Positions 1-43,587 of a stretch of DNA of 52,942 bases are shown here, one piece after another. The notes under the pieces were generated by a model that did not search any database, had not been told where the DNA came from, and worked only from the letters and a program-made list of their open reading frames with translations. The position numbers and the translations under genes were made by a program. Numbering within the stretch: position 1 is the first letter of the stretch; every line of letters starts with the position of its first letter. Source of the stretch: a virus (taxonomy: Duplodnaviria; Heunggongvirae; Uroviricota; Caudoviricetes). Location of the stretch: IMG/VR virus record IMGVR_UViG_2563366966_000001; one strand, written 5' to 3'.

Positions 1-1284
1 TTACAGACTTCTGGAAGGTTGCGCAGCTCTTACAACACGCGGTTGATCTTCCGCAGCGTCTTCCAGCGCACTTAAATCACGGTCTTTCACCTCTGGCATT
101 TTCAGCGCAGAGATTAAACCAATCACTGAATATGCCATGATCATAATGGCGATCGGATACCAGGATTCCGTCATGGTGCAGAAAATACCCGCCAGGATAG
201 GACCAAAACCGGAAGCGATAAGACCACCAATTTCTTTAGAAATAGCCATCCGGGTAAAGCGGTTTTTACAGCCGAACATTTCTGCCATGGTAATGTTTTC
301 CAGAGCAAATAATCCCAGCACCGCACAGTTATGAATCACAATCAGTGCAACCATAATGGTGCTCGGGGCATAGCTTTTATCTACAATGATAGAAAGCATT
401 GGCCATGCCAGCACAATCGCGGAGGTATTCATAATAATATACGGGATCCGGCGACCAATTTTATCGGATAACCAACCAAGGAACGGAATGGTCATAAAGC
501 CGAGAATCGAACTGATCATCAATGCATCTGTTGGAATTGCTTTGTTAAACAATAACGTCTGCACTAAATAGCCTGCAAGGAAAGTCTGAATTAACCCGGA
601 GTTACCCGCCTGACCAAAACGCAGCCCTGTTGCCAGCCAGAAGGATTTGCTCTGGAACATGCTACCAGCAGGTGCAGGTTTTGCTGTCGGTTGGTTACTG
701 TCGTTAACCTTCTCAAAGACCGGGCTTTCTTTCAGATTCATACGCAACCAGATAGCAAAGACCATCACGACAACACTCGCCAGGAACGGTATACGCCATC
801 CCCACGCCAGCAGTTCCTCTTTACTGAGAATGAAGAACATAAAGGCCCAGATTGCCGTTGCGCTCAAGGTTCCGCAGTTAGTTCCCATAGCCACAAATGA
901 GGAGATAATTCCGCGCTTACCTTTTGGCGCATATTCCGCCAGCATCGTACCGGCACCGGAAATTTCCGCACCTGCACCCAACCCCTGAATAATACGCAAC
1001 GTCACCAGCAAGATGGGTGCAAAAACACCAATCTGTGCATAGGTCGGTAACACACCAATTAAGGTGGTACAGATCCCCATCATGGTGATGGTAATAAAGA
1101 GCACTTTTTTACGCCCTATTCTGTCGCCCATTTTGCCGAAAATAAATGCTCCGACAATACGCGCCACATAACCTGCACCGTAGGTTCCCATTGCCAGAAT
1201 TAACGCCATTGCCGTTGATGATTCAGGAAAAAATATTTCATGAAACACTAACGCTGCGCCGAGCGAATATAACTGGAAATCCAT
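1..1284 (-). CDS. ydfJ: MFS-family metabolite transporter (YdfJ-like); N-terminus apparently replaced at the prophage junction
   Basis: 427-aa ORF with multiple hydrophobic helices and the MFS loop motif G-D-R-I-G-R-K-K after TM2; from memory of ShiA/ProP-type homologs about 30 N-terminal residues are missing, and an in-frame stop lies 2 codons upstream of the ATG. Confidence 0.85.
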   Translation of the reverse strand: MDFQLYSLGAALVFHEIFFPESSTAMALILAMGTYGAGYVARIVGAFIFGKMGDRIGRKKVLFITITMMGICTTLIGVLPTYAQIGVFAPILLVTLRIIQGLGAGAEISGAGTMLAEYAPKGKRGIISSFVAMGTNCGTLSATAIWAFMFFILSKEELLAWGWRIPFLASVVVMVFAIWLRMNLKESPVFEKVNDSNQPTAKPAPAGSMFQSKSFWLATGLRFGQAGNSGLIQTFLAGYLVQTLLFNKAIPTDALMISSILGFMTIPFLGWLSDKIGRRIPYIIMNTSAIVLAWPMLSIIVDKSYAPSTIMVALIVIHNCAVLGLFALENITMAEMFGCKNRFTRMAISKEIGGLIASGFGPILAGIFCTMTESWYPIAIMIMAYSVIGLISALKMPEVKDRDLSALEDAAEDQPRVVRAAQPSRSL

Positions 1285-1888
1285 AATTCACAGGTGTTTT
1301 TTCCCATCCTGTGGTTTCCTTGGCGTTTTCTAGGTTTTTTCAGATAGTTGCATTTTTTTAAAAAGCATCCTAAGTTCGATCTCAGTGTCTATCTGGGGCC
1401 TATTTCTGTCCCATATATGCCCCAAAAAAACTCCCCAACAGATAAGTAGTTTTTTCATGGATTTATGCGTAAAATCAAGAACGGCTGGAAATCATTCAAT
1501 ACTCACACTATCGAAAAATTTACCAGCCAATCGCAGCACGTTCTTGCATAAGGCGTGTCTGCGGTTTTTCAACTATTCAGATACATCACTCCCATCACAT
1601 TCATTCCTCCGCATCAAAGGCATATAGGCTATATCACCTTGATATTTTTCTTTTTCAGATAAAAACTGTTATCTATGTATACTTTTAAACCCAATCCGTG
1701 TAGAGTCTCTGCATAAGATAGTTTGCAGTTGCCGCTTCAGCTTGCGCCATAAACCGCCTGATTTTTGCTGCCACCTGTTAGCATTCCTGTATACCTGAAA
1801 CGACAATGTTTATCTACGAACTTTAAGAACACCCAAGATAAAAATTGTCAACTATATCATATATAACACATTACTAATTCGAGGCTAT

Positions 1889-2002
1889 ATGAACAGCATA
1901 CTGATAATCACATCTCTCCTTATCATATTCAGCATTTTTAGTCATGCCCTAATAAAATTAGGGATTGGCATATCCAATAACCCAGACAAAACCGATGTAT
2001 AA
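1889..2002 (+). CDS. Candidate small hydrophobic protein (37 aa, one predicted TM helix)
   Basis: ATG at 1889 preceded by GAGG 5 nt upstream; translation [37 protein letters not shown]; not in ORF track because under 60 aa. Confidence 0.35.
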
Positions 2003-2070
2003 GTCAACATATCCTGAATCAGACATACAATATCGCAATGAAAATCAATAATATTTTAAGGAATATCTTC

Positions 2071-2304
2071 ATGAAATCAAAAGACACCCTAAAGTGGTTC
2101 CCTGCGCAGCTTCCTGAAGTAAGAATTATCCTAGGGGATGCTGTAGTGGAAGTAGCAAAACAGGGAAGACCTATCAATACCAGAACATTGCTTGATTACA
2201 TTGAAGGAAACATAAAGAAAAAATCATGGCTGGATAACAAAGAATTATTACAAACAGCGATATCAGTTCTTAAAGACAACCAAAATTTAAATGGTAAAAT
2301 GTAA
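2071..2304 (+). CDS. ydfK: Cold-shock-associated prophage protein YdfK
   Basis: ORF track 2038..2304; internal ATG at 2071 with AAGGA upstream gives the 77-aa form matching my memory of K-12 YdfK. Confidence 0.8.
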   Translation: MKSKDTLKWFPAQLPEVRIILGDAVVEVAKQGRPINTRTLLDYIEGNIKKKSWLDNKELLQTAISVLKDNQNLNGKM

Positions 2305-2469
2305 TATAATAAACTTACTTTTTTATCATTTTTCCACTTTAACAACATTTTGCTCCACTTTTCCACGACCAAACAACTTGAAATCTGGTTAAAATAACAC
2401 GCAACACTATTCTTCTTCCTTGAGTCCGCCCGGAACTCGAAAAACAAACCGAGTTAAAGCCATTTTTCA

Positions 2470-2483
2470 CAAAATCGATTTTG
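2470..2483. promoter_or_regulatory. Perfect 14-bp palindrome CAAAATCGATTTTG upstream of pin (candidate operator or recombinase site)
   Basis: Exact dyad symmetry read from sequence, about 140 bp upstream of the pin start codon. Confidence 0.3.
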
Positions 2484-2620
2484 GGTCTCACCAAAATTAC
2501 GGGGTTGCATACGCATTCGTTTATTTTCGAACGTGTACATACAAATATGCACAAAAATAATCATAATTATTTTCTGAGATGCATTATGATATGAACACCA
2601 ATTTCGTATAGAGTCTCACT

Positions 2621-3211
2621 ATGTCTCAAATTTTTGCTTACTGTCGGATATCAACGCTGGATCAGACCACCGAAAATCAACGCCGGGAAATCGAAAGTGC
2701 AGGTTTTAAAATCAAACCTCAGCAAATAATCGAAGAACACATTAGCGGCTCAGCAGCAACCAGTGAGCGTCCTGGTTTTAACCGGTTGCTTGCTCGCCTG
2801 AAATGTGGTGATCAATTGATTGTGACAAAACTGGATCGCCTTGGTTGTAATGCAATGGATATCAGGAAAACAGTGGAACAACTGACCGAAACAGGTATCA
2901 GAGTGCATTGCTTAGCATTGGGGGGCATTGACCTGACCAGTCCAACAGGAAAAATGATGATGCAAGTAATTTCAGCAGTCGCTGAATTTGAACGAGACCT
3001 TTTACTTGAACGCACTCATTCCGGGATAGTAAGAGCCCGCGGCGCAGGGAAACGTTTTGGTCGACCACCTGTGTTAAATGAAGAACAGAAACAGGCGGTA
3101 TTCGAACGAATTAAGTCAGGTGTAAGTATAAGTGCCATTGCCCGGGAATTCAAAACCTCGCGGCAAACCATTTTAAGAGCCAAAGCAAAACTTCAGACAC
3201 CTGACATATAA
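2621..3211 (+). CDS. pin: Serine recombinase, Pin/Gin/Hin-type DNA invertase
   Basis: 196-aa ORF; N-terminal resolvase catalytic motif (YCRISTLDQ) and C-terminal HTH; matches Pin-family invertases from memory. Confidence 0.9.
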
Positions 3212-3308
3212 AAAATAATCTCGGTGTGAGATGCTTTACGTCTTCCAAGCCCCCTTCCTTGCCGTAAATGGAAAGATACATCTAATTATAGAATTTATAT
3301 GTTTTACC

Positions 3309-3884
3309 CTACGGCAGTGCTGGCCATTCAATATCCTGTGCAGTTGACGTATCAACACGGTTCAGCAATACCCGATACTTTTTCCATGCTTCCAGCAACG
3401 AGATTTCTTCCTCCGTTGCAATTTCCAGATCTGCAGCATCCTGAAGCGGCGCAATATGCTCACTGGCTACCTGCATCAGGTTGTTTTTTGTTTCTTCCGC
3501 CTCCCGGATCCGGAACAGTTTTTCTGCTTCCGTATCCTTCACCCAGGCTGTGCCGTTCCACTTCTGAAACTCCCCTTCCGGCGATAACCAGGTAACATTT
3601 TCCGGTAACGGACCGAGTTCAGAAATAAATAACGCGTCGCCGGAAGCCACGTCATAAACCGTTTTACCCCGATGATCTTCAACGAGATGCCACGATGACT
3701 CATCACTGTTGAAAACAGCCACGAAGCCAGCCGGAATATCTGGCGGTGCAATATCGGTACTGTTTGCTGGCAGACCTGTATGAGGCGGAATATATGCATC
3801 ACCTTCACCAATAAATTCATTAGTTCCGGCCAGCAGATTATAAATTTTTATGGTCCGTGGTTGTTCACTCATTCTGAATGCCAT
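3309..3884 (-). CDS. tfa: Tail fiber assembly protein Tfa
   Basis: 191-aa ORF highly similar to lambda Tfa as recalled; immediately downstream of stf. Confidence 0.9.
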
Positions 3885-6800
3885 TATGCAAGCCTCACAA
3901 TATAGTTAAATGCGATGTTTTTGACGGTGTTTTCCGCGTTACCAGCAGCGTTAACGGTGATGGTGTGTCCATGTGAACCAATCGCAACGGAGTGCGTATG
4001 AGCACCAATACCGACAGTATGTGCATGTGCGCCTGCGCTTGCAGCAGTGCCGGACAGCGAGTGGGTATGAGCACCATCTGATGATGTCTTCCCTGCATTA
4101 CGAGTCTGGCCACTACCGCTTGTTGTGCTCATAATCCCCGCGCTTAGATTTGAAATCGCGGTATAACCATTAGGGAAAATGCTCGTGTTCGTGCCACCAA
4201 ATGCACCGGAACTCTTGTGTTGGTGCGCACCGGCACTATTTGCGGTCCCGCTAATACTATGGGTATGCGCCCCGGTGTTATTCGTGGATTTGGTTCCGTA
4301 ATCAAACGACGATGTGGTTTTCGTCCCCAAATCCGTACTGGATGCGCTGGCGCTGTGGGTGTGCGATTTAATGCCGTCCTGTTCCTGAGATAATACGGCC
4401 CGACCACTGGCGGGCTTGCCCTTAATCGTCCAGCCACGCATATCAGGGATCACGCCTGACGGATAAGCAACTGCAAGTTTCGGGTATGCAGATTTGTCAA
4501 AAGTCTGCCCCTGCATCAGGGCATAACCAGACGGAACGGTATCTGATGGCCACGGGATTGGTGCACCGACTGGATAAAACTCTGCAGGAGGATGAGCCGA
4601 GGTGTAAAGCTGCGCCCACGGCGACCAGTTTGCGTCGGTCGTATCCCGTCGTGAACGAATAAATGCCGGAGCATGAGCACCGCTTGTACCACTCCAGCCG
4701 ATGAGTAACTCACCTTCGCCAACGGCTGTCATCCCTTTCAGGTGAATGATATTTCCATACGCTGTTGGATATCCGTTGTTATACACCTCGTATAACTCAA
4801 GACCTGCTGCCCCCTGCGTATTGTCTGTCAGCGCGGTTACCCGACCTTTTGAAGCCAGATTAACTGATGATACTGCTGTTCCACCTGACGGTAACGCCCC
4901 GATCTCTGATGCCGTTGGCTTATTTCTGGAGTTATAGTCCCTTCGCCAGCCAGGTGAATAATCTGTTCCGTGATTAATATAGGTAAACTGGGCGTTAGTT
5001 GTTCCACCACCAGTGGAGGTGGTCGGTGTGGTAATGCGGATCGTCATCGCTGACTTTATCCCCATTACTTCAATGACAGCTCCGGCGAGATGAATATTAC
5101 CGCAGTCAGTATCAGTAATGATTTTATTATTGCCATAAGACCAGGAACCCTTGCACATCCAGTATGGATGGTTAAATGCTCCCTGAGAATCCAGCCACTC
5201 GATAAACTGTGCAGTCGTCCAGTTTCCTGTTGTTGTGCTTACTGACCCACCGAAGGCACGGCAGGCACCAATATTTTTCGTAAAGGTATCTTTGCCAGGG
5301 ATATCCGCACCGTTCTGATCTTTCTGCAGACGTTTCTCAGCATTGTCATTGGCTGCTTTTACTGCCTTTGGTGTCGCGGCAAGCGTTTCAGACGTGCTGT
5401 TGGTCGCGCTGCTTAGCTGGATTATCCCTTTCTGTGCTGTCGTTGCATCCTGTGCGGTGTATTTCCCGTTAGCCAGGTCATACGCGGCCTTAACGGCTTT
5501 TGGTGTTGCCGCCAGTGACTCGGAAGTGCTGTTAGTCGCACTACTGAGCTGTACTATCCCCTTTTTCGTCGTGCTCGCATCCTCAAGCGCCACGGCGGAT
5601 GCAATATCCTCTGCCCGTTTTGCTGCTGTCTCGGCGCGCGTTGCTGCGGATTCTGCCGTACTTTTGCTCTGAGCTGCCGCCGTCGCACTGCCAGCAGCCT
5701 CTGTCGCCTTCGTGGATGCCGTCGTGGCGCTGCTCTTCGCTGCTGACGCTTGTCTGGTCGCCTCATCTTTTGAAGCAGACGCCGATGATGCCGATGACGC
5801 CGCCGAACTGGCTGACGATGCGGCAGCCGTTTTTGAGGATTCTGCGCTGGTTTCCGACGCTTTCGCGTTCGTTTCGGATGTCTTCGCTGCGGAAGCAGAC
5901 CTCGCTGCTGCGCTGGCCTGTTCAGTGGCTTCGCCAGCCTTCGTTGTGGCTGTTGAAGCAGACGATGCGGCGCTTTCTGCCGATTTTCCGGCGGCGGTGG
6001 CACTGGCTGAGGCCTGCCCGGCACTTGTTGACGCTGCACTGGCAGACGACGCAGCCGCTGTTTTTGAGCCTGCCGCAGCCGAGGCGCTCTGTCCCGCTGC
6101 CGTTTCAGAAGACCTGGCGTTCGTCTCTGACGTTTTTGCCGCCTTCGCGGAATTTCCTGCCGCTGTTGCCGAGGAAGCTGCGCTACTGGCGCTCGAGGAT
6201 GCGTTCGTTTCTGATGATTTTGCCGCCTCTTTTGAAGCCGACGCATCCCGGGCTGAGGTGGCAGCTTCTGACGCTTTCGTGGTCGCGGTGGATGCAGAAG
6301 TGGCTGCTGATTGTTGTGACGCTGCAGCATTCGTTTCTGACGTTTTCGCGGCACTGGCACTGGTAGCTGCCGCGCTTTTTGAGGACTCTGCAGCGGCAGC
6401 ACTTTTTGATGCTTCAGTGGCCTTTGTTGATGCCGTTCCTGCGCTGGAAGACGCTGACTGAGCCGACGAAGCGGCCTGTCCGGCTGACGTGCTGGCTGCG
6501 CGTGCTGAGCCTGCAGCATCAGTCGCATGGGTTGCCGCCTCACGGGCAGATGTGCCGGCATCGCCGGCTGACTTCTTCGCGGCTGCCGTGTTCTGTGCCA
6601 CCGCGGACGCGTTACGCGCCACCTCTTCCACCATCAGTTCAAAACGGCGCAGAGCCTCCGGACGGGCATCATCCTCCGTCATGGCACCGAGAAAATCATT
6701 CAGCGTACCGGGTCGGGAATCTTCATACACGGTGATGGTCCCGGCATGTGACGGCGGGAATCCTTCCACCAACAGAATAACGCTGTACTGACCGTACTCA

Positions 6801-6958
6801 ACGTCCATGCTGTAACGCCCGGCTTCATCCGGATTTTCTGAGGCCAGCGTGTTCACCACCACCGCGGTGCTGTTACGTTTTGCTTTCAGCTGGATTGTGC
6901 AGTTCTGTACCGGTTTTCCTGTGCCGTCTTTCAGTACACCTGAAATCTTTACTGCCAT
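3884..6958 (-). CDS. stf: Side tail fiber protein Stf (extended relative to lambda Stf)
   Basis: N-terminus [30 protein letters not shown] and C-terminus [31 protein letters not shown] match lambda Stf; ATG at 6958 chosen over the GTG that starts the track ORF. Confidence 0.9.
5330..6604. repeat. Coding repeats inside stf: Ala/Ser/Thr/Lys-rich low-complexity tract plus a roughly 130-bp tandem duplication (5366..5582)
   Basis: Protein repeat KGI(V/I)[11 protein letters not shown](S/T)[11 protein letters not shown] occurs twice 44 residues apart; DNA units at 5366..5450 and 5496..5582 are visibly similar; long antisense ORFs are generated by the low complexity. Confidence 0.6.
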
Positions 6959-6969
6959 ATTCACCCCAC

Positions 6970-6995
6970 AAAAAAGCCCGCCTGAACAGGCGGGC
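6970..6995 (-). terminator. Rho-independent terminator downstream of lom
   Basis: GC-rich hairpin GCCCGCCTG-AACA-GGCGGGC at 6976..6995 followed on the minus strand by a T-run. Confidence 0.6.
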
Positions 6996-7022
6996 TGTCA
7001 TAACACTGTGTTACCTGGCTAA

Positions 7023-7622
7023 TCAGAACTTATAACCGACACCCACGATGAAACCGTCAGTGCGCCAGTCGCCACTGCCGGAGCCTTCATAAGCAATATC
7101 AATGGCCACGGATTCGGTCGGGTTAAACTGCACGCCAGCTCCCCACGCCAGAGACGTGTTGCTGTGGCGACCGTCATCACTTCCGGTCAGCACGTCGTGC
7201 GTTTTCCCCTTGTTGTCAGTTACGCGGAGATAATCCCCGGAGAAAGTCGACACACGGCTGTAAGCCATACCCGCCATCGCATACGCGCTGAACCATTCAT
7301 TCACGCGCACAGACGGCCCCACCATCACGCTGAACCAGCGGTTACGCACGGAATCTTCATGCCAGCGGGTATCGCTGTAACGGGTAAGCTGGCGATTCTT
7401 GTCTCCTGCATAGCTGAATGACGTCACCAGCCCCAGTGTGTCCGTAAACTCATAACGGTATTTCACGTTAATCCCGTTAAGATCATCGCTGCCGGGAACG
7501 TTCGTCGAGGCATGAAGATACCCCGCGCTCAGCGTGGACTGATGTTCAGATGCCCATGCAGGCGCACCGGATACGGCCAGACAAATGGCTGCGGACAAAA
7601 TGGCGGCATAAAGTTTACGCAT
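7023..7622 (-). CDS. lom: Outer membrane protein Lom (Ail/Lom family)
   Basis: 199-aa ORF with signal peptide; matches lambda Lom from memory. Confidence 0.9.
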
Positions 7623-7646
7623 AATTACCTCTCGCTTTTCTGCAAT

Positions 7647-7670
7647 AAAAAAGGCACCATTTCTGGTGCC
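7647..7670 (-). terminator. Rho-independent terminator between J and lom
   Basis: Hairpin GGCACC-ATTTCT-GGTGCC at 7653..7670 followed on the minus strand by a T-run. Confidence 0.5.
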
Positions 7671-7691
7671 CTTATATGGGTTATAACAATT

Positions 7692-10600
7692 TCAACGAAT
7701 ACTGATGCCGGAAGCGGCTTTTTTGGTCACAATCACCGTACAGTCGGTGATATTGCCTGCCCCCTGATTGCCTTTCTGGAAAATCTTAAACTCCAGAGTG
7801 ACGCTACCACCACCACTAGGCATATCAATAACTGCACTGTAACTACCGGGAATGGCCCCTTTAGTTTCTCTGGATGCGATTAATACGCCGTTTTTGCGAA
7901 CTTCAAAACCATAACCCGTGTATCGCGTGCCTCCTGGGTTATTTCCGCTCCCCGGATCGTCATACGCTATACCGTTAAAAATAATGGGCGGAATAATAAT
8001 CTGGCGGTCAAAGTTATGATCATCGCTGATGGTGACTGTAACCGTACCGTTTGGTGTTTCCGTGTTACCCCACGTACCGACTTTTTTCGGGAAGGCTTTT
8101 GATACAGCTTTAACGAAATCCCCTCTGACCTGGGTCGCCTCCAGCATGCCCTTAATCGTACAGTTCTGGTTAATCGTGACATTGTTGAGCGTTCCTGAGT
8201 TCGCATTCACACTACCACTGATATCCGCATTTTTAGCGGTCAGCTTTCCGTCTGATGTCAGGGAAAATACCGGAGGACTGCCACCGCTGGTAATGGTGGG
8301 GGCCGTCAGGCGTTTCAGGAACACTTCATTCATGAATATCTGATCGCCCTGACCAACAAACATCGGCTTTGTGTTGCCATTCGCAGGATTAATCATCGCA
8401 ATCCTGTCTGCTGCCAGCAGCACCTGACTCTGCATGCCGTCAGGGGTGTTCTCAATACCGGCACCGATACCCGCAATATAAAGGCGTCCGTCCTGCATCT
8501 GCTGCAGCTTCACTGCCCACATGCTGTTCAGGTTATTATTTGTATCAACCTGAACCTTCTGTATCTGCTGGATTGCCGCACTCTGGTCTTCCAGTTTCTT
8601 ATTGACGGTCTGTGTTATTTCATTGCTGACATCCGTTATGGACGTCCTGATTTCAGTCAGGTCAGGCGCAAGCTGACCGTTATCAATCTGCGTCCACAGC
8701 TCCTGAGCCAGATGGGTTTTCCCTATCTCGCCTTTGAAAAAATCCAGATAGCCTGATGCATCATCACTCGGCTGACCGACAGCCTCCACGAATGCCGATT
8801 TGCCAACGGTGTTCACACTGCGAACGTAAAAATAATAATCATGGCCCGGTTTGATATTGATACTGGCGGCTATCCAGTACAGTGCCGTACCAAGATAACG
8901 CGCGCTGGTTTCAACCTGCCTGATATCCGCAATCCGTTTTTCCGAGAACCAGAACTCAAACTGTACCGTCGGGTCATAAACCGCAAGATGCGGCGTGGCG
9001 GTTATCTGAAAATAGCCCGGCGTCAGCTCAATCCGCGACGGCGCTGCCGGTGCGGCAATCCGGAACGATACCGACGCCGGATCGCCCTGCTGCCCCCACG
9101 CATTTACTGCCCGGACTGTCAGCCTGTAGTTCCCCAGAGCCAGTTGTGTGAAGCGGTAAGTGGTTTCCGTCGTCCGGGCCGTGCTGACCAGCCGCTCACG
9201 GCCGTCATCCGCTGCCACGGTCAGGCGAAGCAGGAAGCTCACGCCCTTCACCACCTTCGGCGTGTCCCAGCGCGCCAGCACCTGGTATTCCCCGCTGTCT
9301 GCGGTGACTTCTGCGGTCAGGTGCTGCACCGCTGGCGGCGTGACACCATTTACCGTGCCGCTCTGGTCGCCGTCAAAGTGCGCCCCGTTATCCACGATGG
9401 CCTCTTTTTCCGGTACATGCTGCACGGCGGTGATGGCATACGTGCCGTCGTCGTTCTCACGGATACTCACGCAGCGGAACAGGCGCTGGCGCAACGTCGA
9501 CAGCTTCAGCCCCCATACGCTGTATTCAGCAACGCCGTCAGGAACACGGCTCACTTTCACCTTCACGCCGTCGGTGACGGACTGAACCTCCACGCTGACC
9601 GGACTCCCCTGCCCGTCAACCAGGCTTATCAGCGTGGTGCCGGAAGATGGCAGCGTGATTTCACGGTCGAGCGTCAGCGTCCGGGTCTGGCTGTTTACCG
9701 CCAGCACGCGCCCGCCGGTGCGGATACCGGCATAGTCATCATCGCAGATTTCAATGACATCGCCCGGTACATGGCGAAGCCCTTCGGCACCCACGCTGAA
9801 GTCCACGGTCTGCGTTTCCAGCAGTTCTGTTTTAATCAGCCACAGCCCGGCGCGGTGTGCCTGCCCCCGGCTGGTACAGCCAAAAGCATCCATCTTCGTG
9901 ACGTTACGACCGTAACGGGCAATGGCCTGCGTGTCCTCCACAAGCTCTGTCGCCGTCTCCCAGCCGTTATTCGGGTCAATCCAGTTCACCTCAACGGCAT
10001 TATGGCGGTCCTTCAGGGCGCTGAAGCTGTAGCGGAACGGCGCACCATCATCCGGCATCACCACATTACTGCGGTTATAGGTCCACACCTTATCCGACGG
10101 TCGGTCCTGCACGAACGTCAGCGTCTGCCCGTTCCATACCGGCATACAGCGCATCGCAGAGCAGAAATCACTGAGCACATCCCACGCCTTGCGCTGTGTG
10201 GTCAGGTACGCATTACAGGTGATGCGCGGCTCTGTGCCGCCAAAACCGTCCGGCACCGACTGATCGCAATGCTGGCCGATGACATACAGCGCCCATTTGT
10301 CCACATCCGCCGCACCAAGACGTTTCCCCATGCCGTAGCGCGGATGGGTCAGCATATCCCACAGACACCAGGCCATGTTGTTGCTGTATGCTGGCTTAAA
10401 CGTTCCGTCCCAGATACCGCTGTATTGCCGCGTCTGCGGGTTATAGTTCGACGGCACCTGCAGAATGCGCCCGCGCAGATGATAATTACGGCTCACCTGC
10501 TGGCTGCCGAACTGCTCCGAATCCACCTGCACGCCGACCAGTGCCGTGTTCGGGTAGCACTGTTTCACATCGATGATTTCGGTGTATGACGACCAGAGCG

Positions 10601-36963: not shown

Positions 36964-38812
36964 AGTTAACATTACAAGATATAAGTAATGGACGCACTCC
37001 CAATTAGTCTATTTAAATCGCCACGAGTTTAACTGACAACCCATGATCAATTATGAATTGCAACTATTTCTGTAGTCACTTTTGTGGGGACAGTCCACAA
37101 AACTGCCAACTTCCGCTTCTTGCTCTTAGCGGACATTAGCATAGGCTATTTACCATAACGCCTCATTACGCGCACCGCCCAGACTGACTCAGCGCGTTTC
37201 TGGCATATCCCCGGTAAAACAAGTAACAAACCACCCGAAAATGAACACCAGAAACGCGACTTAAGAATCTACCCTATGAATGGATATGCACTCAACCGAA
37301 TCGATCTTGGTTTCAATCTTTTTTATCGGGATCAGGCTTCTTTTTAGGTAACTTCGGGGGCTTAACTTGCTGATGACTTTGCGTTCGGCGCGTAAGCCAG
37401 GGATGGTCAGCTTTAGGTTTAACATAGTATTTTGAGCGTAAATCAATACGGGCATTATCCACTCGTTCATGGACACTCTTTTCATCATCCAGTGGTATAG
37501 GCTCCGGGCCATCAACATACTTTTCCCAGCCCAGCGCTTTCCCGTCATACAGAACGTTAATTTCACCGTCAAAGTTCTCGCATACAGTAACAACCGAATG
37601 CCTAAGTCGATATCCCCGGCCCTCACTGCGTACCTGAAACGCACTGCTTTTGTACTGGAAAGTGAGATTTTTAGACAGAACGCGCTTCGCCTGTAGGCTG
37701 AAGATATAACCCAGTTCCTCTTCAGAATGGTGCACATCAAGATGAGCATTATCAGTAGTACGAGGCGACGTAGCGAACCGGTTGTTATAGGCTTCAATAA
37801 AGGTCGGCAACCATGCATTTGCTGTTTCAATATCACTGATATTCTGAAGCCGCATTTCTTTGACCAGCCTGTCCTGTAGTGTCTGATTGGCGCGCTCTAC
37901 CCGCCCTTTTGCCTGCGGGCTGTTGGCATGGATTGGCTCGATGCCCAGTGTCTTTATCGCACGAGTGAACTGGGTCAGCTCACCTTCCCGCTCTGGGTTA
38001 TTTACCCTGAATATACTGTGTCTATCAGAGTAGAGAGCGAGCGGTACGCCATGATCATTAAGGTAACCCCGGAGGGTTTCCATGTAAGCCCGGGTTGTTT
38101 CAGCAGGCACAAAACGCAACGCCATCAACGCACTGGTGGCATCATCAATGAAAACGATCAGTGTACATCTGGGGCCTCGATTTTCAAACCAGTCATGAGG
38201 TGAGCCATCAATCTGGATCAGTTCACCGTAAGATGGTCGTCGCATGCGGCGTTGATATATACGGGCAATTTTACGACGGCGTTCACGCCATAACCCCTCT
38301 TCTATCATCCACTTTCTGAGAGTTTCAACGGATAAAGATAAACCGTGTATCTCGCGCAATTTTTCGCACGCAAACGTAGGTCCAAAATCAGCGTAACGGC
38401 CTTTGAGGAGTGAAATTACTGTTGCTCTGAATTCAGTAGAAAAGGAATTATTAGGACGCTTTCCACGTCGGTGGGAAACCAGACCAGAAGGCCCTTCATT
38501 TCTATACCGTTGCACCAGACGTTTAACCTGCCGAATAGAAATGCCAATGCGTGCCGCAGCTTGTTCCTGAATAATCTGAAGTCGGTGGAGTTCCTTATGA
38601 CTCATCGTAACAGTCTCTTTGATCATGAAAAATCCCCCAGAGAATTGTCTGGGGACATTTTAGAATGGTTCAAAGGGGACATTACAGCTTGGTGTTAACA
38701 ATAGCCTGCTTCTCCGTGCCTTTCGGCACGTAAGAGGCTAACCTACATGTGTCTAGCATGAAATTGGCCTCAGATTAATGTTAAGCGTCTTGCAGGACGC
38801 GTAATGTTAACT
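36964..38812. mobile_element. Possible extent of the IS481-like element, bounded by a 12-bp perfect inverted repeat (AGTTAACATTAC / GTAATGTTAACT)
   Basis: Inverted repeat at 36964..36975 and 38801..38812 flanking the transposase ORF; no target duplication identified, so boundaries are tentative. Confidence 0.3.
37313..38626 (-). CDS. DDE transposase with N-terminal HTH (integrase-core type; IS481-family-like)
   Basis: 437-aa ORF; HTH-like N-terminus (RIGISIRQVKRLVQRY) and integrase-core signatures (D...D...E with GRVERANQTL); no IstB-like partner. Confidence 0.7.
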   Translation of the reverse strand: MIKETVTMSHKELHRLQIIQEQAAARIGISIRQVKRLVQRYRNEGPSGLVSHRRGKRPNNSFSTEFRATVISLLKGRYADFGPTFACEKLREIHGLSLSVETLRKWMIEEGLWRERRRKIARIYQRRMRRPSYGELIQIDGSPHDWFENRGPRCTLIVFIDDATSALMALRFVPAETTRAYMETLRGYLNDHGVPLALYSDRHSIFRVNNPEREGELTQFTRAIKTLGIEPIHANSPQAKGRVERANQTLQDRLVKEMRLQNISDIETANAWLPTFIEAYNNRFATSPRTTDNAHLDVHHSEEELGYIFSLQAKRVLSKNLTFQYKSSAFQVRSEGRGYRLRHSVVTVCENFDGEINVLYDGKALGWEKYVDGPEPIPLDDEKSVHERVDNARIDLRSKYYVKPKADHPWLTRRTQSHQQVKPPKLPKKKPDPDKKD

Positions 38813-38985
38813 GGGGCTTTTCTCTATCTGCCGTTGGTGTCCATGCCCGAGGCAGATAGCCTCAAGCACCCGCAGTCATTCTACTTAACTAAGATTTCCC
38901 CGCAAACCGTTTTTGTCCAGCACAGTAAATATCCAACTAAACCAATGGAGTTCGCTGTATTTACCGCCAGTATTCAATGCACATG

Positions 38986-39000
38986 ACCGCCATGAACACC
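38986..39000. repeat. 15-bp direct repeat ACCGCCATGAACACC, left flank of IS2-like element
   Basis: Identical 15-mer immediately outside both ends of the IS2-like element. Confidence 0.85.
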
Positions 39001-39091
39001 TGAGCTGGCCCCCTGAAATACCAGACAGTAGATGTATCTTAAAATAAGAGATAGGCTTGGATATATGTCTAACACTAGTTCTAATTTTGAG

Positions 39092-39460
39092 ATGGCTGGC
39101 GTTTTGTTAGGAAAAGAGGTGCGTAAACGTAAAACACCTCAGGAAAAAATCGCAATTATTCAACAGACTATGGAGCCGGGCATGACGGTGTCCCACGTGG
39201 CGCGTTTGCATGGAATTCAGCCCAGTCTGTTGTTTAAGTGGAAGAAACAATACCAGGAAGGAAGCCTCACTGCTGTGGCTGCCGGTGAAGACGTTGTTCC
39301 TGCTTCTGAACTGGCCGCTGCAATAAAGCAGATTAATCAGCTTCAGCGTTTACTGGGTAAGAAAACCATGGAAGTTGAGATCCTCAAAGAAGCGGTGGAG
39401 TATGCACAATCGCGAAAATGGATAGCGCATGTGCCCTTGTTACCTTCGGACAAGGAATAG
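39092..39460 (+). CDS. IS2-type OrfA (InsC-like, HTH)
   Basis: Similarity to IS2 InsC ([28 protein letters not shown]); ATG at 39092 chosen by alignment to InsC. Confidence 0.75.
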
Positions 39461-40299
39461 CCCCGGTAAGCCGTGTTCTGGGCGTGTCACGTGCGCAGTT
39501 AACATTACGGATGAAGGCATCTGATAACAAGCCAGATAAACGGCGTCAGAGGCGCGATGAGGCTGCGGATGCAGAAGTCTTATCGCGCATCCTTGATATC
39601 ATTGGCGATATGCCAGCATACGGGTATCGCCGTGTCTGGGCGATACTCAGGCGGCAGTCCCGAAATGAAGGACTACCGTTCGTGAATGCAAAGCGTGTTT
39701 ACCGGATAATGAGCGAAAATAGTCTGTTGTTGTTACATGACAAACCATCACGACGGCAGCGGGAACATAAAGGCCGAATATCGGTGAAGGAAAGCGACCA
39801 GCGTTGGTGTTCCGATGGCTTTGAGTTCGGTTGCGATGATGGCGAAAAACTGCGTGTTACGTTCGTCCTGGACTGTTGCGATCGTGAAGCCATAGACTGG
39901 GCCGCAAGCACGGGAGGTTACGATAAAGCGACAGTGCAGGATGTGATGTTAGGAGCGATAGAAAAACGCTTTGGCGATAAAGTACCGGAACAGTCCATCC
40001 AGTGGCTGACAGATAACGGTTCAGCGTACAGAGCGCATGAAACACGGCAGTTCGCCAGAGAGCTGAATCTGAAGCCCTGCACAACGGCAATCAGTAGCCC
40101 TCAGAGTAATGGAATGGCAGAACGGTTCGTGAAAACGATGAAGGAAGACTACATCGCGTTCATGCCGAAACCGAATGTAAGAACGGCATTGCATAACCTT
40201 GCAGTGGCGATCGAGCATTACAATGAAAACCATCCGCATAGTGCGTTGGGTTATCGCTCTCCGCGAGAATATCGACGTCAGCGGGTAATGTTAACTTAA
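39418..40299 (+). CDS. IS2-type OrfB (InsD-like DDE transposase catalytic domain)
   Basis: 293-aa ORF similar to IS2 InsD; likely expressed as an OrfAB fusion by frameshifting. Confidence 0.75.
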
Positions 40300-40530
40300 G
40301 ATACAACCCCTGTCTGGAAATAAGGGGGCAAGAACAACCGCCATGAACACCCCTAAAAAAAGGGCATTTATATATCCAAATATTAATATCAAAACATCAA
40401 CTTTTTCCATATACCTTGCTGTGAAGATGATGGGCATACATGATGCGAACAACCAGAACGCAACAAACAAAAACTGCAATGCGTTTTTCATTATTCCTCC
40501 TACAATCAATGTGCAATTACATTTAAACAC
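40291..40530 (-). CDS. Small hydrophobic protein whose 3-prime end is replaced by IS2-like sequence
   Basis: ORF of 79 aa; the last 14 codons lie inside the IS; removing the IS and one repeat copy restores a 72-aa ORF ending MCIEYWR. Confidence 0.4.
40337..40351. repeat. 15-bp direct repeat ACCGCCATGAACACC, right flank of IS2-like element
   Basis: Identical 15-mer immediately outside both ends of the IS2-like element. Confidence 0.85.
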
Positions 40531-40745
40531 ACCTCAATTTGGCCGGACATATAAATATCTAAACCAGAAAAAATCACTTACATAGCGTTACAAACTCTTT
40601 AGTCTAAAGGTTCATCGTAAAACATTCCCCATACTTATCAGTCCGTTCCGCGCCAGGTAGCTCATTGCCTTATCTGGCAACCTGTAATCAGGTTTCCGCT
40701 TTTTCAGTTGGCTGGTCGTTTAACCGACATAGTTAATCCATTAAT

Positions 40746-41033
40746 CTAGTTGCCGGATGTTGGTGGATTTTCGCGTTTTAGTTGTTCATAAAAGTGCACA
40801 GCTTTAACCAGTTCTTCTGATGTAACTGGGACTGGTGAGGCAGTGAATAAGGCCTGAATTTGATAGTTCGGCCTGTCGTTACAATCCTCTTTTTTCGGTA
40901 CATATTTCCAGTCACCAGACCACTACTTCCCCTGAAAGTCCGTAACGCCTTTTTTCACGTAGCGATATCGCCATGCCACTGGTTTTGCTTGCCCCGCCGT
41001 TTCATGCCCTTCCTGATAATTAATCTCGCTCAT
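40746..41033 (-). pseudogene. Decayed ORF with in-frame amber codon (36 codons, TAG at 40923..40925, then 58 more codons)
   Basis: Translation MSEINYQEGHETAGQAKPVAWRYRYVKKGVTDFQGK-stop-WSGDWKYVPKKEDCNDRPNYQIQALFTASPVPVTSEELVKAVHFYEQLKRENPPTSGN. Confidence 0.3.
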
Positions 41034-41165
41034 TCATCGCCCCACTCATCACAATATGCTTCGACCGGAGTTTTTCCCGCTTCATAGTCATCACGCTAGG
41101 ATTCGACATCAGCAGCACTTCCACCGCGTAACTCACCATAGTCCATTAATAGTTCATCCCGCTCT

Positions 41166-41173
41166 TCAAAACT
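41166..41173. repeat. Target site duplication TCAAAACT (left) of IS66-family element
   Basis: Identical 8-mer at 41166..41173 and 43629..43636 abutting the GTAAGCG termini. Confidence 0.85.
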
Positions 41174-41254
41174 GTAAGCGTCGTCTCAGCACCGTCTGGC
41201 AGATCCTGAAATTCCTGAGAGAATAGTGGACACCAAATATGGTGGACGCAATCC

Positions 41255-41659
41255 ATGAAATCATTAACCGCAGTGCGTAAAAAAAGCCCTAATTATCCCG
41301 TTGAGTTCAAAATCAAAATGGTTGAACTCTCGCATCGACCAGAGATCTCCGTAGCGCAACTCGCTCGTGAGCATGGGATCAACGATAATTTGCTGTTCAA
41401 GTGGCGCCAGTACTGGCGCGAAGGAAAACTACGTCCTCCTTCAACAACAGAAAACAACGTGCCTGAGCTGCTCCCGATAACACTTGATGCCGAAGATGTT
41501 GTCCCTACAACCTCCCCCCGGTCACAACCTGTAGCTGCTGCGACACCTGAATCACTCAATATCAGCTGTGAAGTGACGTTCCGGCACGGATCACTCCGTC
41601 TGAATGGTGCCATCAGCGAAAATATCCTGAACCTGCTGATACGGGAGCTCAAACGTTGA
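41255..41659 (+). CDS. IS66-family TnpA (OrfA)
   Basis: 134-aa ORF, first of the IS66 triplet. Confidence 0.85.
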   Translation: MKSLTAVRKKSPNYPVEFKIKMVELSHRPEISVAQLAREHGINDNLLFKWRQYWREGKLRPPSTTENNVPELLPITLDAEDVVPTTSPRSQPVAAATPESLNISCEVTFRHGSLRLNGAISENILNLLIRELKR

Positions 41660-42003
41660 TCCCATTACCATCAGGGACAAAGATCTGGCTGGTCGCTGGC
41701 ATCACCGATATGAGAAACGGCTTCAACGGCCTGGCGGCAAAGGTGCAGACGACGCTGAAAGACGATCCGATGTCAGGTCACGTTTTTATCTTCCGTGGGC
41801 GTAATGGCAGTCAGGTAAAGCTCCTCTGGTCTACCGGCGATGGACTGTGTCTGCTGACCAAACGGCTGGAGCGCGGCCGCTTCGCCTGGCCGTCAGCCCG
41901 GGATGGCAAAGTGTTCCTCACACCGGCACAGCTGGCGATGCTGCTGGAAGGTATCGACTGGCGGCAGCCTAAAAGACTGCTTACGTCCCTGACTATGTTG
42001 TAA
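41656..42003 (+). CDS. IS66-family TnpB (OrfB)
   Basis: 115-aa ORF overlapping tnpA stop. Confidence 0.85.
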   Translation: MIPLPSGTKIWLVAGITDMRNGFNGLAAKVQTTLKDDPMSGHVFIFRGRNGSQVKLLWSTGDGLCLLTKRLERGRFAWPSARDGKVFLTPAQLAMLLEGIDWRQPKRLLTSLTML

Positions 42004-42051
42004 GCCTCTTTATCCTGGTCGACGCTGAATGAGCCTGGTAATATACCCGGT

Positions 42052-43587
42052 ATGAGCAGCTCACTTCCTGACGATATCAATGCACTGAAACGTCTCCTTG
42101 CCGAACAGGAGGCGCTGAACCGTGCCCTGCAGGAAAAGCTGAACGAGCGTGAACGCGAAATAGACCATCTGCAGGCACAGCTGGATAAGCTGCGCCGGAT
42201 GAACTTCGGCAGCCGCTCGGAAAAAGTCTCCCGTCGTATCGCACAGATGGAAGCTGACCTGAAGGCACTTCAGAAAGAAAGTGATACCCTTACCGGTCGG
42301 GTTGACGACCCGGCCGTGCAGCGCCCGCTGCGTCAAACCCGCACCCGCAAACCGTTCCCCGAATCACTCCCCCGCGATGAAAAACGGCTGCTGCCGGCAG
42401 CGTCATGCTGCCCGGAATGTGGAGGCTCGCTGAGCTATCTGGGTGAGGATGCCGCCGAACAGCTGGAGCTGATGCGCAGCGCCTTCCGGGTTATCCGGAC
42501 TGTACGTGAAAAGCATGCCTGTACTCAGTGCGATGCCATCGTGCAGGCCCCCGCGCCTTCACGGCCCATCGAGCGGGGTATCGCAGGACCGGGGCTGCTG
42601 GCCCGCGTGCTGATCTCAAAGTATGCAGAGCACACCCCGCTGTACCGCCAGTCTGAAATGTACGGCCGCCAGGGCGTGGAGCTGAGTCGTTCACTGCTGT
42701 CGGGCTGGGTGGATGCATGCTGCCGGCTACTGTCACCGCTGGAAGAAGCGCTTCAGGACTATGTGCTGACTGACGGTAAGCTCCATGCTGATGACACGCC
42801 TGTCCCGGTGCTGTTGCCAGGCAATAAGAAAACGAAGACCGGGCGGTTATGGACCTACGTTCGTGACGACCGTAACGCCGGGTCAACGCTGGCGCCGGCG
42901 GTGTGGTTCGCTTACAGCCCGGACAGAAAAGGCATCCATCCGCAGACCCATCTTGCGGGGTTCAGTGGTGTACTGCAGGCGGATGCATACGCCGGGTTCA
43001 ACGAGCTGTACCGGGATGGCCGGATAACGGAAGCCGCCTGTTGGGCTCACGCCCGCCGTAAAATCCACGATGTGCACGTTCGCACCCCGTCAGCCCTGAC
43101 GGAGGAAGCGCTGAAACGGATCGGCGAACTGTACGCCATCGAGGCAGAGATAAGGGGAATGACGGCGGAGCAGCGCCTTGCCGAACGTCAGTTGAAAACG
43201 AAACCGCTGCTGAAATCCCTGGAAAGCTGGCTGCGTGAAAAGATGAAAACCCTGTCGCGACACTCAGAACTGGCGAAAGCGTTCGCATACGCCCTGAACC
43301 AGTGGCCGGCGCTGACGTACTATGCAGATGATGGCTGGGCTGAGGCGGACAATAACATCGCTGAAAATGCGTTGCGGATGGTCAGTCTGGGCCGCAAAAA
43401 CTACCTGTTCTTCGGTTCGGATCATGGAGGAGAGCGGGGAGCGCTGCTGTACAGCCTGATCGGGACGTGCAAACTGAACGGAGTGGAGCCAGAAAGCTAC
43501 CTCCGCTATGTCCTTGACGTCATAGCCGACTGGCCGATAAACCGGGTCGGCGAACTGCTCCCCCTGGCGCGTAGCACTGCCGACTGA
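42052..43587 (+). CDS. IS66-family transposase TnpC
   Basis: 511-aa ORF with N-terminal leucine zipper, CxxC zinc-binding motif and DDE domain typical of IS66 transposases. Confidence 0.9.

Follow-up and report, generated by a model that had tools for sequence, protein, structure and literature searches.

The pinQ recombinase gene of a tailed phage probably belongs to a decayed Tn3-family mini-transposon

The DNA examined here (the window) is the complete 52,942-nucleotide stretch of a Caudoviricetes virus record (IMGVR_UViG_2563366966_000001), in which a gene for a small serine recombinase faces the genes of the side tail fibre. The genes at this locus are as follows, with the position of ynfT transferred from the 99.9% identical locus of E. 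coli K-12 (L001; offset 2716).

1889..2002, plus strand: ynfT, a YnaM/YnfT small protein, from the annotation of the K-12 locus; a neighbour outside the element described below
2071..2304, plus strand: ydfK, cold shock protein YdfK, with no Pfam match; a neighbour outside the element
2621..3211, plus strand: pinQ, a small serine recombinase of 196 amino acids with Resolvase and HTH_7 domains; probable tnpR of the fossil element
3309..3884, minus strand: tfa, tail fibre assembly protein (Caudo_TAP, E = 3.6e-43); convergent with pin and outside the element
3884..6964, minus strand: stf, side tail fibre of 1026 amino acids with phage_tail_N, Phage_fiber_2 and Collar domains; the sole copy in the window

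The initial annotation had described a pin gene convergent with a single tfa/stf pair, separated from it by 97 bp and accompanied by no alternative tail-fibre cassette. This layout was borne out: the gap spans positions 3212-3308, and tblastn searches of the whole window with Tfa and with the C-terminal 450 amino acids of Stf found only the genes themselves. Prophages integrated at three different sites, and inducible phages too, have the same cassette-free pin-tfa arrangement. The whole window was also searched for a second crossover site, and none was found. Scans with hix and gix sequences, followed by scans with the e14 pix sites themselves, gave matches at chance level only. On a matrix derived from those e14 sites (L170), the best 26-mer of the window scored 11.0, compared with 29-30 for real pix sites and 9.6-20 for simulated windows, and the e14 pix inverted repeat was absent from the window even with 3 mismatches allowed. 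The region 2380-2620 is contiguous in 2789 of 2799 E. coli records, and the two orientations that an inversion would produce were not found among the natural isolates in these records. In e14 the pix site and the P segment lie directly upstream of pinE, and in Din-family systems the gene points away from the segment, whereas pinQ is transcribed towards tfa.

The pin product is 100% identical to PinQ of K-12. Outside the Qin and Rac phages its closest relatives are the tnpR genes of Tn5403-like Tn3-family transposons, with 72-84% amino acid identity, whereas identity to the e14 invertase PinE is 38%. The placement of the protein in the Gin/Hin/Pin family of invertases therefore does not hold, given that the much closer relatives belong to tnpA<-res->tnpR modules. 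Among solved structures the top match is Gin invertase (106 bits) rather than gamma-delta resolvase (84 bits); the label of resolvase thus rests on genomic context, and the protein sequence by itself slightly favours Gin. The helix-turn-helix of PinQ hardly differs from that of the transposon resolvases, enzymes associated with TGTmCGAAA half-sites, and is unlike the recognition helix of PinE. With the Din-family invertases (Gin, Hin, Cin and PinE, which use 26-bp crossover sites and a Fis enhancer) PinQ shares its superfamily, its size, its phage-borne location and its position adjoining tail-fibre genes, but its locus has no crossover sites, invertible segment or alternative cassettes, and its nearest relatives are resolvases. 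We take the related transposons to be Tn5403-like on the basis of literature mentions and of element size, an assignment made by description rather than by a reference sequence. Automatic annotation already labels the Tn5403-associated resolvase as 'pinR' (PMC13253593). The invertase label has also been propagated backwards onto transposon resolvases.

The relatives at 72-84% identity share a conserved array upstream of the recombinase gene, consisting of a site I of 26 bp (consensus TGwCCGAAA-N8-TTTCGTACA), a 14-bp spacer, a site II of 32 bp, a -10 hexamer and a site III. Many of them carry a divergent open reading frame of 1047 amino acids with DDE_Tnp_Tn3 and DUF4158 domains, and relatives with 38-bp inverted repeats (IRs, of the type GGGG...ACGYTAAG) at both ends have the left repeat at a fixed 3177 bp upstream of tnpR. 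One locus (L164) is a complete 3.79-kb IR-tnpA-res-tnpR-IR unit whose intact res lies within its positions 4480-4616, and another (L003), on a ColV-type plasmid, is a tnpA-less IR-res-tnpR-IR element of ~850 bp. When the surroundings of pin were compared with these elements, the following features were recognized.

2416..2420, no strand: TTCCT, left copy of a candidate 5-bp target-site duplication, directly outside the left repeat and identical to 3255-3259
2421..2458, plus strand: decayed left 38-bp terminal inverted repeat (IRL), of a Tn3-family element, matching the family IR consensus at 24/38 positions
2470..2483, no strand: palindrome CAAAATCGATTTTG, lying in the spacer that separates IRL from res site I
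2478..2497, no strand: second dyad ATTTTGG-GTCTCA-CCAAAAT, overlapping the palindrome; forms a centroid hairpin with an energy not better than that of shuffles
2508..2533, no strand: decayed res site I homologue, CATACGCAT-TCGTTTAT-TTTCGAACG (9+8+9), from a gap-free alignment with family site I
2548..2579, no strand: decayed res site II homologue, TGCACAAAA-N14-TTTCTGAGA (9+14+9), from alignment with family res
2585..2590, plus strand: probable -10 hexamer of pin, TATGAT, aligned with the conserved TATAAT of the family and presumed to act as a promoter element
2589..2610, no strand: res site III homologue with two half-sites in the same direction (..GAACA.. and TTTCGTATA), from alignment with family res
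2846..2848, plus strand: codon 76 of pinQ, TGT (Cys) in place of the CGT (Arg) of the family; equivalent in alignments to catalytic R71 of Tn3/gamma-delta resolvase
3220..3254, minus strand: decayed right terminal repeat (IRR), following the stop codon of pin directly
3255..3259, no strand: TTCCT, right copy of the candidate target-site duplication, with a boundary that presupposes the loss of 3 bp from IRR

The two best IR matches in the window, on either strand, flank pin in inverted orientation, at 2421 (plus) and 3220 (minus). IRL, the second best, matches the family consensus at 24 of 38 positions and the left repeat of L003 at 26 of 38, and none of 3000 shuffles reached its score. The best match, IRR, was scored without gaps over 3220-3257 (25/38); it is in register with the right repeats of L003, L013, L017 and L042, and when a 3-bp deletion is assumed (3220-3254) the match becomes 27 of 35 bases, with the conserved terminal CCCC back in place. 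Identity of the remnants to the consensus is only 63-68%. Between IRL and the gene, the decayed res spans 2508-2612, and sites I, II and III align to the family res without gaps, matching its consensus at 40 of 53 highly informative columns but at only 33 of 82 others. As dyads of their respective geometries, the site I homologue ranks 17th of 52,917 positions and the site II homologue 2nd of 52,911, and the site III half-site at 2601-2612 (core 2602-2610) scores 11.7, the third-best match to the family half-site in the window. The half-sites are degenerate overall, with scores from -7.8 to 11.7 against a family mean of 15. Within the window, tblastn with the family TnpA gave no significant remnant of tnpA, and no second res-like dyad was found.

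PinQ resembles the resolvases of Tn3 and gamma-delta in being a small serine recombinase, in having upstream of the gene a res of three subsites, overlapping the promoter, and in its half-sites of the TGTCCGAAA type, but the similarity amounts to only ~84 bits. The spacings of the res subsites differ as well, with 28, 34 and 25 in Tn3 and gamma-delta and 26, 32 and a same-direction pair in the PinQ family. Of the catalytic set of serine resolvases (Y6, R8, S10, D36, R68 and R71), the equivalents of Y6, R8, S10 and R68 are present in PinQ as Y7, R9, S11 and R73, and the set is incomplete at two positions. The equivalent of D36 is Glu39, a glutamate throughout the PinQ/tnpR family, and the equivalent of R71 is Cys76. 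Position 76 is Cys in 15 of 15 PinQ/PinR-type proteins and Arg in 185 of 186 others, and codon 76 did not vary in 89 copies of the gene. Four proteins with Arg76 and 90-92% identity (P0004-P0007) were considered as evolutionary intermediates and rejected, as they are sharp chimeras of plasmid-type and PinQ-type halves; they come from short contigs of metagenomes and could have arisen in assembly. In Tn3 resolvase, R71A and R71K abolished recombination and cut cleavage ~1000-fold but did not abolish binding at site I (PMC2794168); the mutants measured carried Ala and Lys, and a like effect of Cys would follow by analogy. On the stem branch of PinQ, 12 substitutions fall at sites with a conservation of 97% or more elsewhere. 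Within the clade, 14 synonymous and 8 nonsynonymous variants (pN/pS ~0.18) and the absence of premature stops in the 89 copies show that the reading frame is under purifying selection, and the frame is intact in about half of E. coli genomes and in inducible phages. Kept intact in this way, the protein does something.

Together these features make it probable that 2421-3254 is a fossil non-autonomous Tn3-family (Tn5403-like) mini-transposon of the form IR-res-tnpR-IR, with pinQ as the resolvase gene of the decayed element and the palindrome as a by-product. Such an element would have inserted just downstream of tfa, in a dispensable region of an ancestral lambdoid phage, and would have left the 5-bp TTCCT duplication; the terminal repeats and the three res subsites would then have decayed, and the recombinase would have lost one catalytic arginine (Cys76 in place of R71). 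A query of joined flanks, with the expected junction ...CACTATTCTTCTTCCT followed by TGCCGTAAATGG..., found no unoccupied site in 5,426 E. coli genomes or 50,697 phage records, and for this reason we infer the transposition rather than regard it as demonstrated. Since pinQ would be the resolvase gene of a decayed mini-transposon, no invertible tail-fibre segment is expected; none would ever have been present here, and convergence with tfa/stf would be an accident of the insertion site. With no tnpA, no partner res and the catalytic arginine lost, PinQ most likely performs no recombination in cis. It would bind DNA at sites II and III, the res remnants with which its own promoter overlaps, any catalysis in trans being weak or dependent on a partner, and DNA binding of an autoregulatory type is the most economical guess as to its role.

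The cryptic Tn5403-like units (IR-tnpA<-res->tnpR-IR, ~3.7-3.8 kb) agree with the window in a recombinase 72-84% identical, in a three-part res with the same layout and register upstream of the gene, and in the family of 38-bp IRs, the right one directly following the tnpR stop codon, as in L003 and L164. The window differs from them in having no tnpA, IRs only 63-68% intact, decayed res half-sites and a cysteine in place of the catalytic arginine. Because tnpA is absent, we file the element as a non-autonomous derivative resembling TIME-RES and not as a transposon proper. TIME-RES is a mobile non-autonomous Tn3-derived element with only res and tnpR between IRs of 38-40 bp (Szuplewska et al. 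2014, PMC4133298), and it shares with the window the IR-res-tnpR-IR order without transposase, a 5-bp target duplication and a size of ~0.8-1.2 kb. It differs in its Tn5563 lineage, its Pseudomonas host, its resolvase of 309 amino acids and its demonstrated transposition, whereas the copy in the window would be a degenerate phage fossil; L003 is an apparently intact enterobacterial example of the TIME-RES type. The locus would thus be a clean case of a Tn3-family 'portable res' fossilised in a phage, with the gene then kept by selection. As originally posed, the observation of an invertase gene without a cassette is an ordinary one, and the transposon origin of PinQ is a modest new point. It bears on pinQ and pinR genes annotated as DNA invertases in E. 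coli K-12 and thousands of other genomes, for it would explain why no invertible segment was ever found beside them and would make the search for one needless.

A role for PinQ beyond its own locus has been described in a peer-reviewed 2025 report, according to the main text of which overproduction of PinQ inverts the P segment of e14 in trans (from ~30% to ~88%), survivors of T2 infection carried the P-segment inversion, deletion of stfP, stfE or e14 abolished the effect of PinQ, and inversions were found only in e14 (PMC12529663). The same text has the P segment locked in pinE and in pinE pinQ mutants and, since it is locked in pinE mutants, PinE was present in every experiment there that showed inversion; neither a PinQ-only nor an active-site-mutant control was found in that main text. 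We tentatively entertain the possibility that PinQ and PinR are exapted, catalytically crippled resolvases kept by lambdoid phages for a non-catalytic role, either as DNA-binding regulators or as partners that bias or stimulate a PinE-like invertase. If so, the published phenotype of PinQ inverting e14 would be indirect and dependent on PinE. It is rather unlikely that PinQ is a genuine, active invertase with its substrate elsewhere, acting in trans on the e14 P segment at 26-bp pix sites. The rise in inversion on overproduction, the inverted T2 survivors and the need for stfP, stfE and e14 favour it, as do the purifying selection on the reading frame, which fits a retained function, and the cross-action among serine invertases established in work cited in the same text (PMC12529663). 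Set against these are the presence of PinE wherever inversion was seen, the lack in PinQ of the arginine equivalent to R71, at which Tn3 resolvase mutants do not recombine (PMC2794168), and a resolvase-like helix-turn-helix unlike that of PinE, when the real pix half-sites read TTCTCCCAAACC. Activity in trans is compatible with the transposon origin but not with a loss of catalysis. The missing catalytic arginine is a concrete caveat where PinQ itself is claimed to invert the P segment in defence against phages. The e14 element itself lies outside the window.

The perfect 14-bp palindrome CAAAATCGATTTTG from which the inquiry started is present upstream of pin at 2470..2483, but it is not the only dyad there, although the initial annotation saw no other strong one: ATTTTGG-N6-CCAAAAT overlaps it and TGCACAAAA-N14-TTTCTGAGA (2548-2579) lies downstream. 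Nor is it statistically special in the window, which holds seven perfect 14-bp palindromes against 3.7 +/- 1.9 expected in Markov-1 simulations, 9% of which reach seven. In a search for inverted and direct repeats over positions 1-9000 it had no partner, and no inverted repeat involved 2470-2483. It was rejected as an RNA hairpin, terminator or known RNA family, with folding no better than that of shuffles (z = -0.12) and no terminator-like site or Rfam match overlapping it. It was likewise rejected as res site I, which the alignment puts at 2508-2533, and as a copy of site I with a 4-bp central deletion, for which the similarity to a correspondingly deleted L003 site I (14/22 matches) was too weak. 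The 26-mer centred on it scores 5.5 on the e14 pix matrix. The palindrome matches neither resolvase nor Gin/Hin/Pin-type sites, and nothing marks it as a site of recombination. The best reading is that it arose in AT-rich DNA by chance or as a neutral by-product and is not a crossover site, and no significance has been demonstrated for it.

It is unlikely that the palindrome is a functional protein-binding site, whether an additional site for PinQ or the operator of another regulator, that controls pin or leftward transcription. Its position as a perfect dyad in the promoter-proximal spacer is suggestive (P ~0.036 for one such palindrome in the AT-rich 316-bp ydfK-pin spacer taken alone), and, scored as two family-type half-sites around a 4-bp spacer, it comes 24th among 52,921 positions, but its half-sites score -5.9 and -4.1 on the resolvase-family matrix (family mean 15) and far worse, -12.5 and -16.8, in the second haplotype. 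None of the 17 upstream alleles seen differs within the inner 12 bp, which is not significant at a divergence of 8-12%, and this divergence between haplotypes is even over 2346-2612, with no dip at the palindrome. The outer pair varies freely among alleles (C/G, A/T, A/A or A/G) instead of being kept as a pair; the changes C2470A and G2483T in allele L010 had looked like compensatory maintenance of the dyad, an idea rejected as other alleles pair A with A or G. The stretch of the plasmid mini-element L003 that aligns with the palindrome is a non-conserved spacer and has no such palindrome, in one natural allele an IS insertion has abolished the palindrome and the pin gene is still intact, and the seven palindromes of the window also count against a binding site. 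A further point in favour of a binding site is a third CCAAAAT motif two helical turns past the palindrome.

The initial annotation had proposed that either the invertible segment was lost or the recombinase acts on a different substrate; no segment or second crossover site was found here, the natural substrate would indeed be something else, and the second option is also what is claimed for the e14 P segment in the main text of PMC12529663. The first option does not survive. That PinQ is a Gin/Hin/Pin-family invertase whose adjacent tail-fibre segment and second crossover site were deleted is very improbable and already contradicted by the tests run here, in spite of the adjoining tail-fibre genes, the 38% identity to PinE, Gin as the best solved-structure match and the historical name Pin, for transposon tnpR genes accompanied by res sites are by far the closest relatives, the window keeps the res, IR and duplication relics of a transposon, pin points towards tfa when e14 has its pix site and P segment immediately upstream of pinE, neither a pix- or hix-like site nor an alternative tfa or stf fragment occurs anywhere in the window, and the cassette-free arrangement recurs at three prophage integration sites and in inducible phages. 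The two partial or broken alleles examined, from the search of E. coli records (H84/L163) and from a viral contig (L122), are IS insertions. A break in homology at ~2511 in L122, considered as a resolvase crossover and rejected as such, is an IS903/IS102-like insertion.

Invertible DNA was sought around pin (2621-3211, + strand), a gene of a lambdoid prophage that occupies the Qin site within ydfJ. A truncated transporter gene comes first. Next to it are ynfT, ydfK and pin, and tfa, stf, lom and tail gene J follow on the other strand; the integrase gene lies at the opposite end of the prophage, and the early region holds several IS elements. The prophage is probably defective, because its early region (37313-43587) carries rve-type, IS3-family and IS66-family IS elements.

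Prophage features in the window.
1-1284 (-), truncated MFS transporter gene
37313-38626, rve-type IS, early region
39032-40299, IS3-family element, early region
41255-43587, IS66-family element, early region

The protein encoded by pin matches K-12 PinQ at 100% identity and PinR of Rac at about 99%. The ynfT-ydfK-pin-tfa-stf block also occurs at a third integration site, adjoining prfC, and in inducible phages (e.g., mEp460, 2H10, and Tritos), and pin is present in about half of complete E. coli genomes.

The initial annotation described a single tfa and a single stf, separated from pin by 97 bp, and no obvious alternate tail-fibre cassette. The gene counts and the gap were confirmed, and pix-site, repeat, and contiguity checks gave no sign of an invertible segment. 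In the K-12 element e14, pinE lies directly beside the P segment, which is bounded by the 26-bp crossover (pix) sites TTCTCCCAAACC-AA-GGTTTTCGAGAG and TTCTCCCAAACC-AA-CGTTTATGAAAA. A matrix derived from these sites scored 29-30 on the true sites and at most 11.0 anywhere in the window, within the 9.6-20.1 obtained with simulated sequence; hence the second 26-bp Gin/Hin-type crossover site that the annotation had proposed searching for was not found, the best score being at chance level. The e14 repeat itself is absent from the window. Among complete E. coli genomes, 2380-2620 is contiguous in 2789 of the 2799 records containing that stretch, and both partial or broken alleles examined (H84/L163 from the E. 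coli search and viral contig L122) are IS insertions. Since pix scores are at chance, no repeat partner exists, 2380-2620 is contiguous, and the broken alleles are IS insertions, a Gin/Hin-type inversion system is absent here.

PinQ has thousands of homologues. The closest outside the Qin/Rac phage lineage (72-84% amino acid identity) come from many Enterobacterales, where they are both plasmid-borne and chromosomal, as well as from Vibrio, Shewanella, and Burkholderiaceae. These are tnpR genes of the Tn3 family, and the regions upstream of them hold a strikingly conserved array, to which the window aligns without gaps from site I to the ATG.

Recombination-site (res) arrays of the family and of the window.
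Family site I, TGwCCGAAA-N8-TTTCGTACA, 26 bp
Family spacer between sites I and II, 14 bp, variable
Family site II, TGTCCGAAA-N14-TTTCGGACA, 32 bp
Family -10 hexamer, TATAAT, after site II
Family third half-site pair, after the -10 hexamer, then the ribosome-binding site and ATG
2508-2533, window site I
2548-2579, window site II
2585-2590, window -10 hexamer
2589-2610, window site III

Many family loci carry a divergent ORF beginning MPRRQI..., which starts about 45 bp left of site I; its equivalent at comparison locus L013, listed as 1047 aa, has a Tn3 transposase DDE domain and DUF4158. The units are bounded by 38-bp inverted repeats of Tn3-family type (GGGGTCCGC...ACGCTAAG), the left one always 3177 bp upstream of tnpR, the right one beyond variable cargo. 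Locus L164 is a complete IR-tnpA-res-tnpR-IR unit of 3.79 kb, and L003, from a ColV-type plasmid, is an IR-res-tnpR-IR version of ~850 bp without tnpA. Judged by literature mentions and by size, the units are Tn5403-like elements. Elements of the IR-res-tnpR-IR type without transposase (TIME-RES) still transpose and make 5-bp duplications (PMC4133298). Homology between L003 and L164 runs from L164 position 4501 (L003 5943), one base before res site I (which begins at L003 5944), to 5253, the outer end of the right repeat; these limits would be the expected pattern of res-mediated exchange between related transposons. At another locus (L052, Erwinia oleae), two family tnpR genes facing apart (starts 1864, -, and 2068, +) have one site I in common, flanked by site II and III arrays that mirror each other, a head-to-head double res arrangement.

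Of the columns of the family res, the window matches 40 of the 53 that are highly informative and 33 of the 82 that are uninformative. The stretch immediately following the pin stop codon, 3220-3257, can be aligned in register to the right repeats of four family loci (L003, L013, L017, and L042). When the whole window was scanned on both strands with the inverted-repeat consensus, the top match was at 3220 (-, 25/38) and the second at 2421 (+, 24/38; 26/38 against the L003 left repeat), a score reached by none of 3000 shuffles; the two best matches thus flank pin in inverted orientation. Allowing a 3-bp deletion in the right repeat restores the conserved terminal CCCC and places the element end at 3254, which leaves TTCCT outside both ends (2416-2420 and 3255-3259). 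A 5-bp duplication is a hallmark of Tn3-family transposition. No trace of tnpA was found in the window. Judged from these alignments, the window retains decayed copies of every part of a Tn3-family unit except tnpA. As no unoccupied insertion site was found in E. coli genomes or phages, we infer the insertion event from its relics. A scoring matrix was derived from 164 family half-sites, which average 15.0; on it the window res half-sites scored -7.8, 5.4, 5.8, 0.9, -5.9, and 11.7, and are thus decayed; no second res-like dyad is present in the window. The best family half-site match in the whole window, ACTGACCGAAAC (2881-2892, score 13.3), falls within the pin coding sequence and is probably coincidental.

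The perfect palindrome CAAAATCGATTTTG is present at 2470-2483, as annotated, though not as the only strong dyad, since a second at 2478-2497 overlaps it. It is unremarkable and not significant: the window holds 7 perfect 14-bp palindromes against 3.7 +/- 1.9 expected, and the chance of one in the AT-rich ydfK-pin spacer (34% G+C) is about 0.036. Folded as RNA, the region does no better than shuffles; neither a terminator-like site nor an Rfam match overlaps the palindrome, and an inverted-repeat search of 1-9000 found no partner pairing with it. The palindrome falls within the fossil element, in the 49-bp spacer that separates the left repeat from res site I; its left arm corresponds to the T-rich bases that all relatives have just inside the left repeat, and the remainder aligns with the non-conserved spacer of L003, which has no such palindrome. 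Its halves scored -5.9 and -4.1 on the family half-site matrix (-12.5 and -16.8 in a second natural haplotype), and the 26-mer centred on it scored 5.5 on the pix matrix. Across 17 upstream alleles the inner 12 bp are invariant and the outer pair is C/G, A/T, A/A, or A/G; haplotype divergence is even over 2346-2612 (8-12%), with no dip at the palindrome, and in one allele an IS insertion removed the palindrome and left pin intact. Given its spacer position, half-site scores, allele variation, the even divergence, and the IS allele, nothing marks it as a crossover site or operator, and a protein-binding role is unlikely though conceivable.

Codon 76 of pin is TGT (Cys), at the position of R71 of Tn3/gamma-delta resolvase; Arg occupies it in 185 of 186 relatives and in Gin, PinE, and gamma-delta resolvase (LDRLGR). 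The R71A and R71K mutants of Tn3 resolvase do not recombine and cleave ~1000-fold more slowly, with binding to site I not abolished (PMC2794168). All 89 collected copies of the PinQ/PinR gene encode Cys76, and of 105 positions with at least 97% conservation elsewhere in the family, PinQ departs at 12. The 27 alleles contain 14 synonymous and 8 nonsynonymous variants without any premature stop (pN/pS ~0.18), showing that pin is not decaying and is under purifying selection. The two natural haplotypes of 2346-3320 (window versus L162 and L010-type alleles) diverge by 8-12% upstream (2346-2612), 0.7% in the pin coding sequence, and 2-3% in the 3' flank; inter-prophage recombination, with a boundary near the ATG, appears to have homogenised the coding sequence. 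Four short metagenome and Logan contigs (L165-L168; proteins P0004 and P0006) encode recombinases that are plasmid-type, with Arg76, through codon 76 and PinQ-type thereafter, followed by tfa. The switch falls at window 2847-2877. Either these contigs stem from genuine recombination between plasmid and prophage that restored the catalytic Arg, or they are assembly chimeras at a shared 30-mer.

That the segment was lost or that the recombinase acts on a different substrate had been offered as alternatives. The second has a published form: Kirigo et al. 2025 report that PinQ overproduction leads to inversion of the e14 P segment, outside the window, in trans, blocking phage T2 (PMC12529663). Whether PinQ itself catalyses this inversion is uncertain. 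Inversion upon overproduction speaks for it; in the same paper, however, the P segment is locked in pinE and pinE pinQ mutants, which means that every observed inversion took place with PinE present (PMC12529663). PinQ also lacks the R71-equivalent arginine, and its recognition helix is of the transposon-resolvase type, associated with TGTmCGAAA half-sites, and does not resemble the helix of PinE, which has TTCTCCCAAACC sites.

We propose that a Tn5403-like mini-element inserted downstream of tfa in an ancestral phage. The fossil would now be unable to move or resolve anything in cis, because there is no tnpA, no partner res, and no observed rearrangement polymorphism. From the R71 data, PinQ has probably lost most catalytic power, and the purifying selection shows that it is nevertheless kept for some function. 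Speculatively, that function would most likely be DNA binding at the res remnants overlapping its own promoter, and possibly interaction with other serine recombinases. PinQ and its lack of a cis segment are already in the literature; our literature search found no publication on the origin of pinQ/pinR as a fossil Tn3-family mini-transposon resolvase without the catalytic arginine. This origin and the lost arginine offer a direct experimental test of the recent claim on PinQ.

Several other observations were made. Window 40141-40245 shares 97% identity with an IS fragment adjoining the L003 mini-element. A partial Rfam match to the candidate small RNA IS009 (3343-3400, -; 51.5 bits, E = 2.6e-10, below the gathering score) lies within the 3' part of tfa and is clipped at the edge of the searched range. 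Near the prophage end, ~100 bp (~1445-1550) share 81-88% identity with unannotated sequences among the sampled rows (H17-H30), and roughly 2,700 records at 80-90% identity are apparently mostly matches to this stretch, which resembles a dispersed repeat; a weak CssrB sRNA match lies at 1532-1669 (-). In E. coli ECDA1023 (CP178308.1), near-identical Rac-type and Qin-type pin modules (L008 and L011) lie in opposite orientation ~200 kb apart, near 1.43 and 1.63 Mb, and if the two recombined with each other, the 200 kb in between would be inverted.
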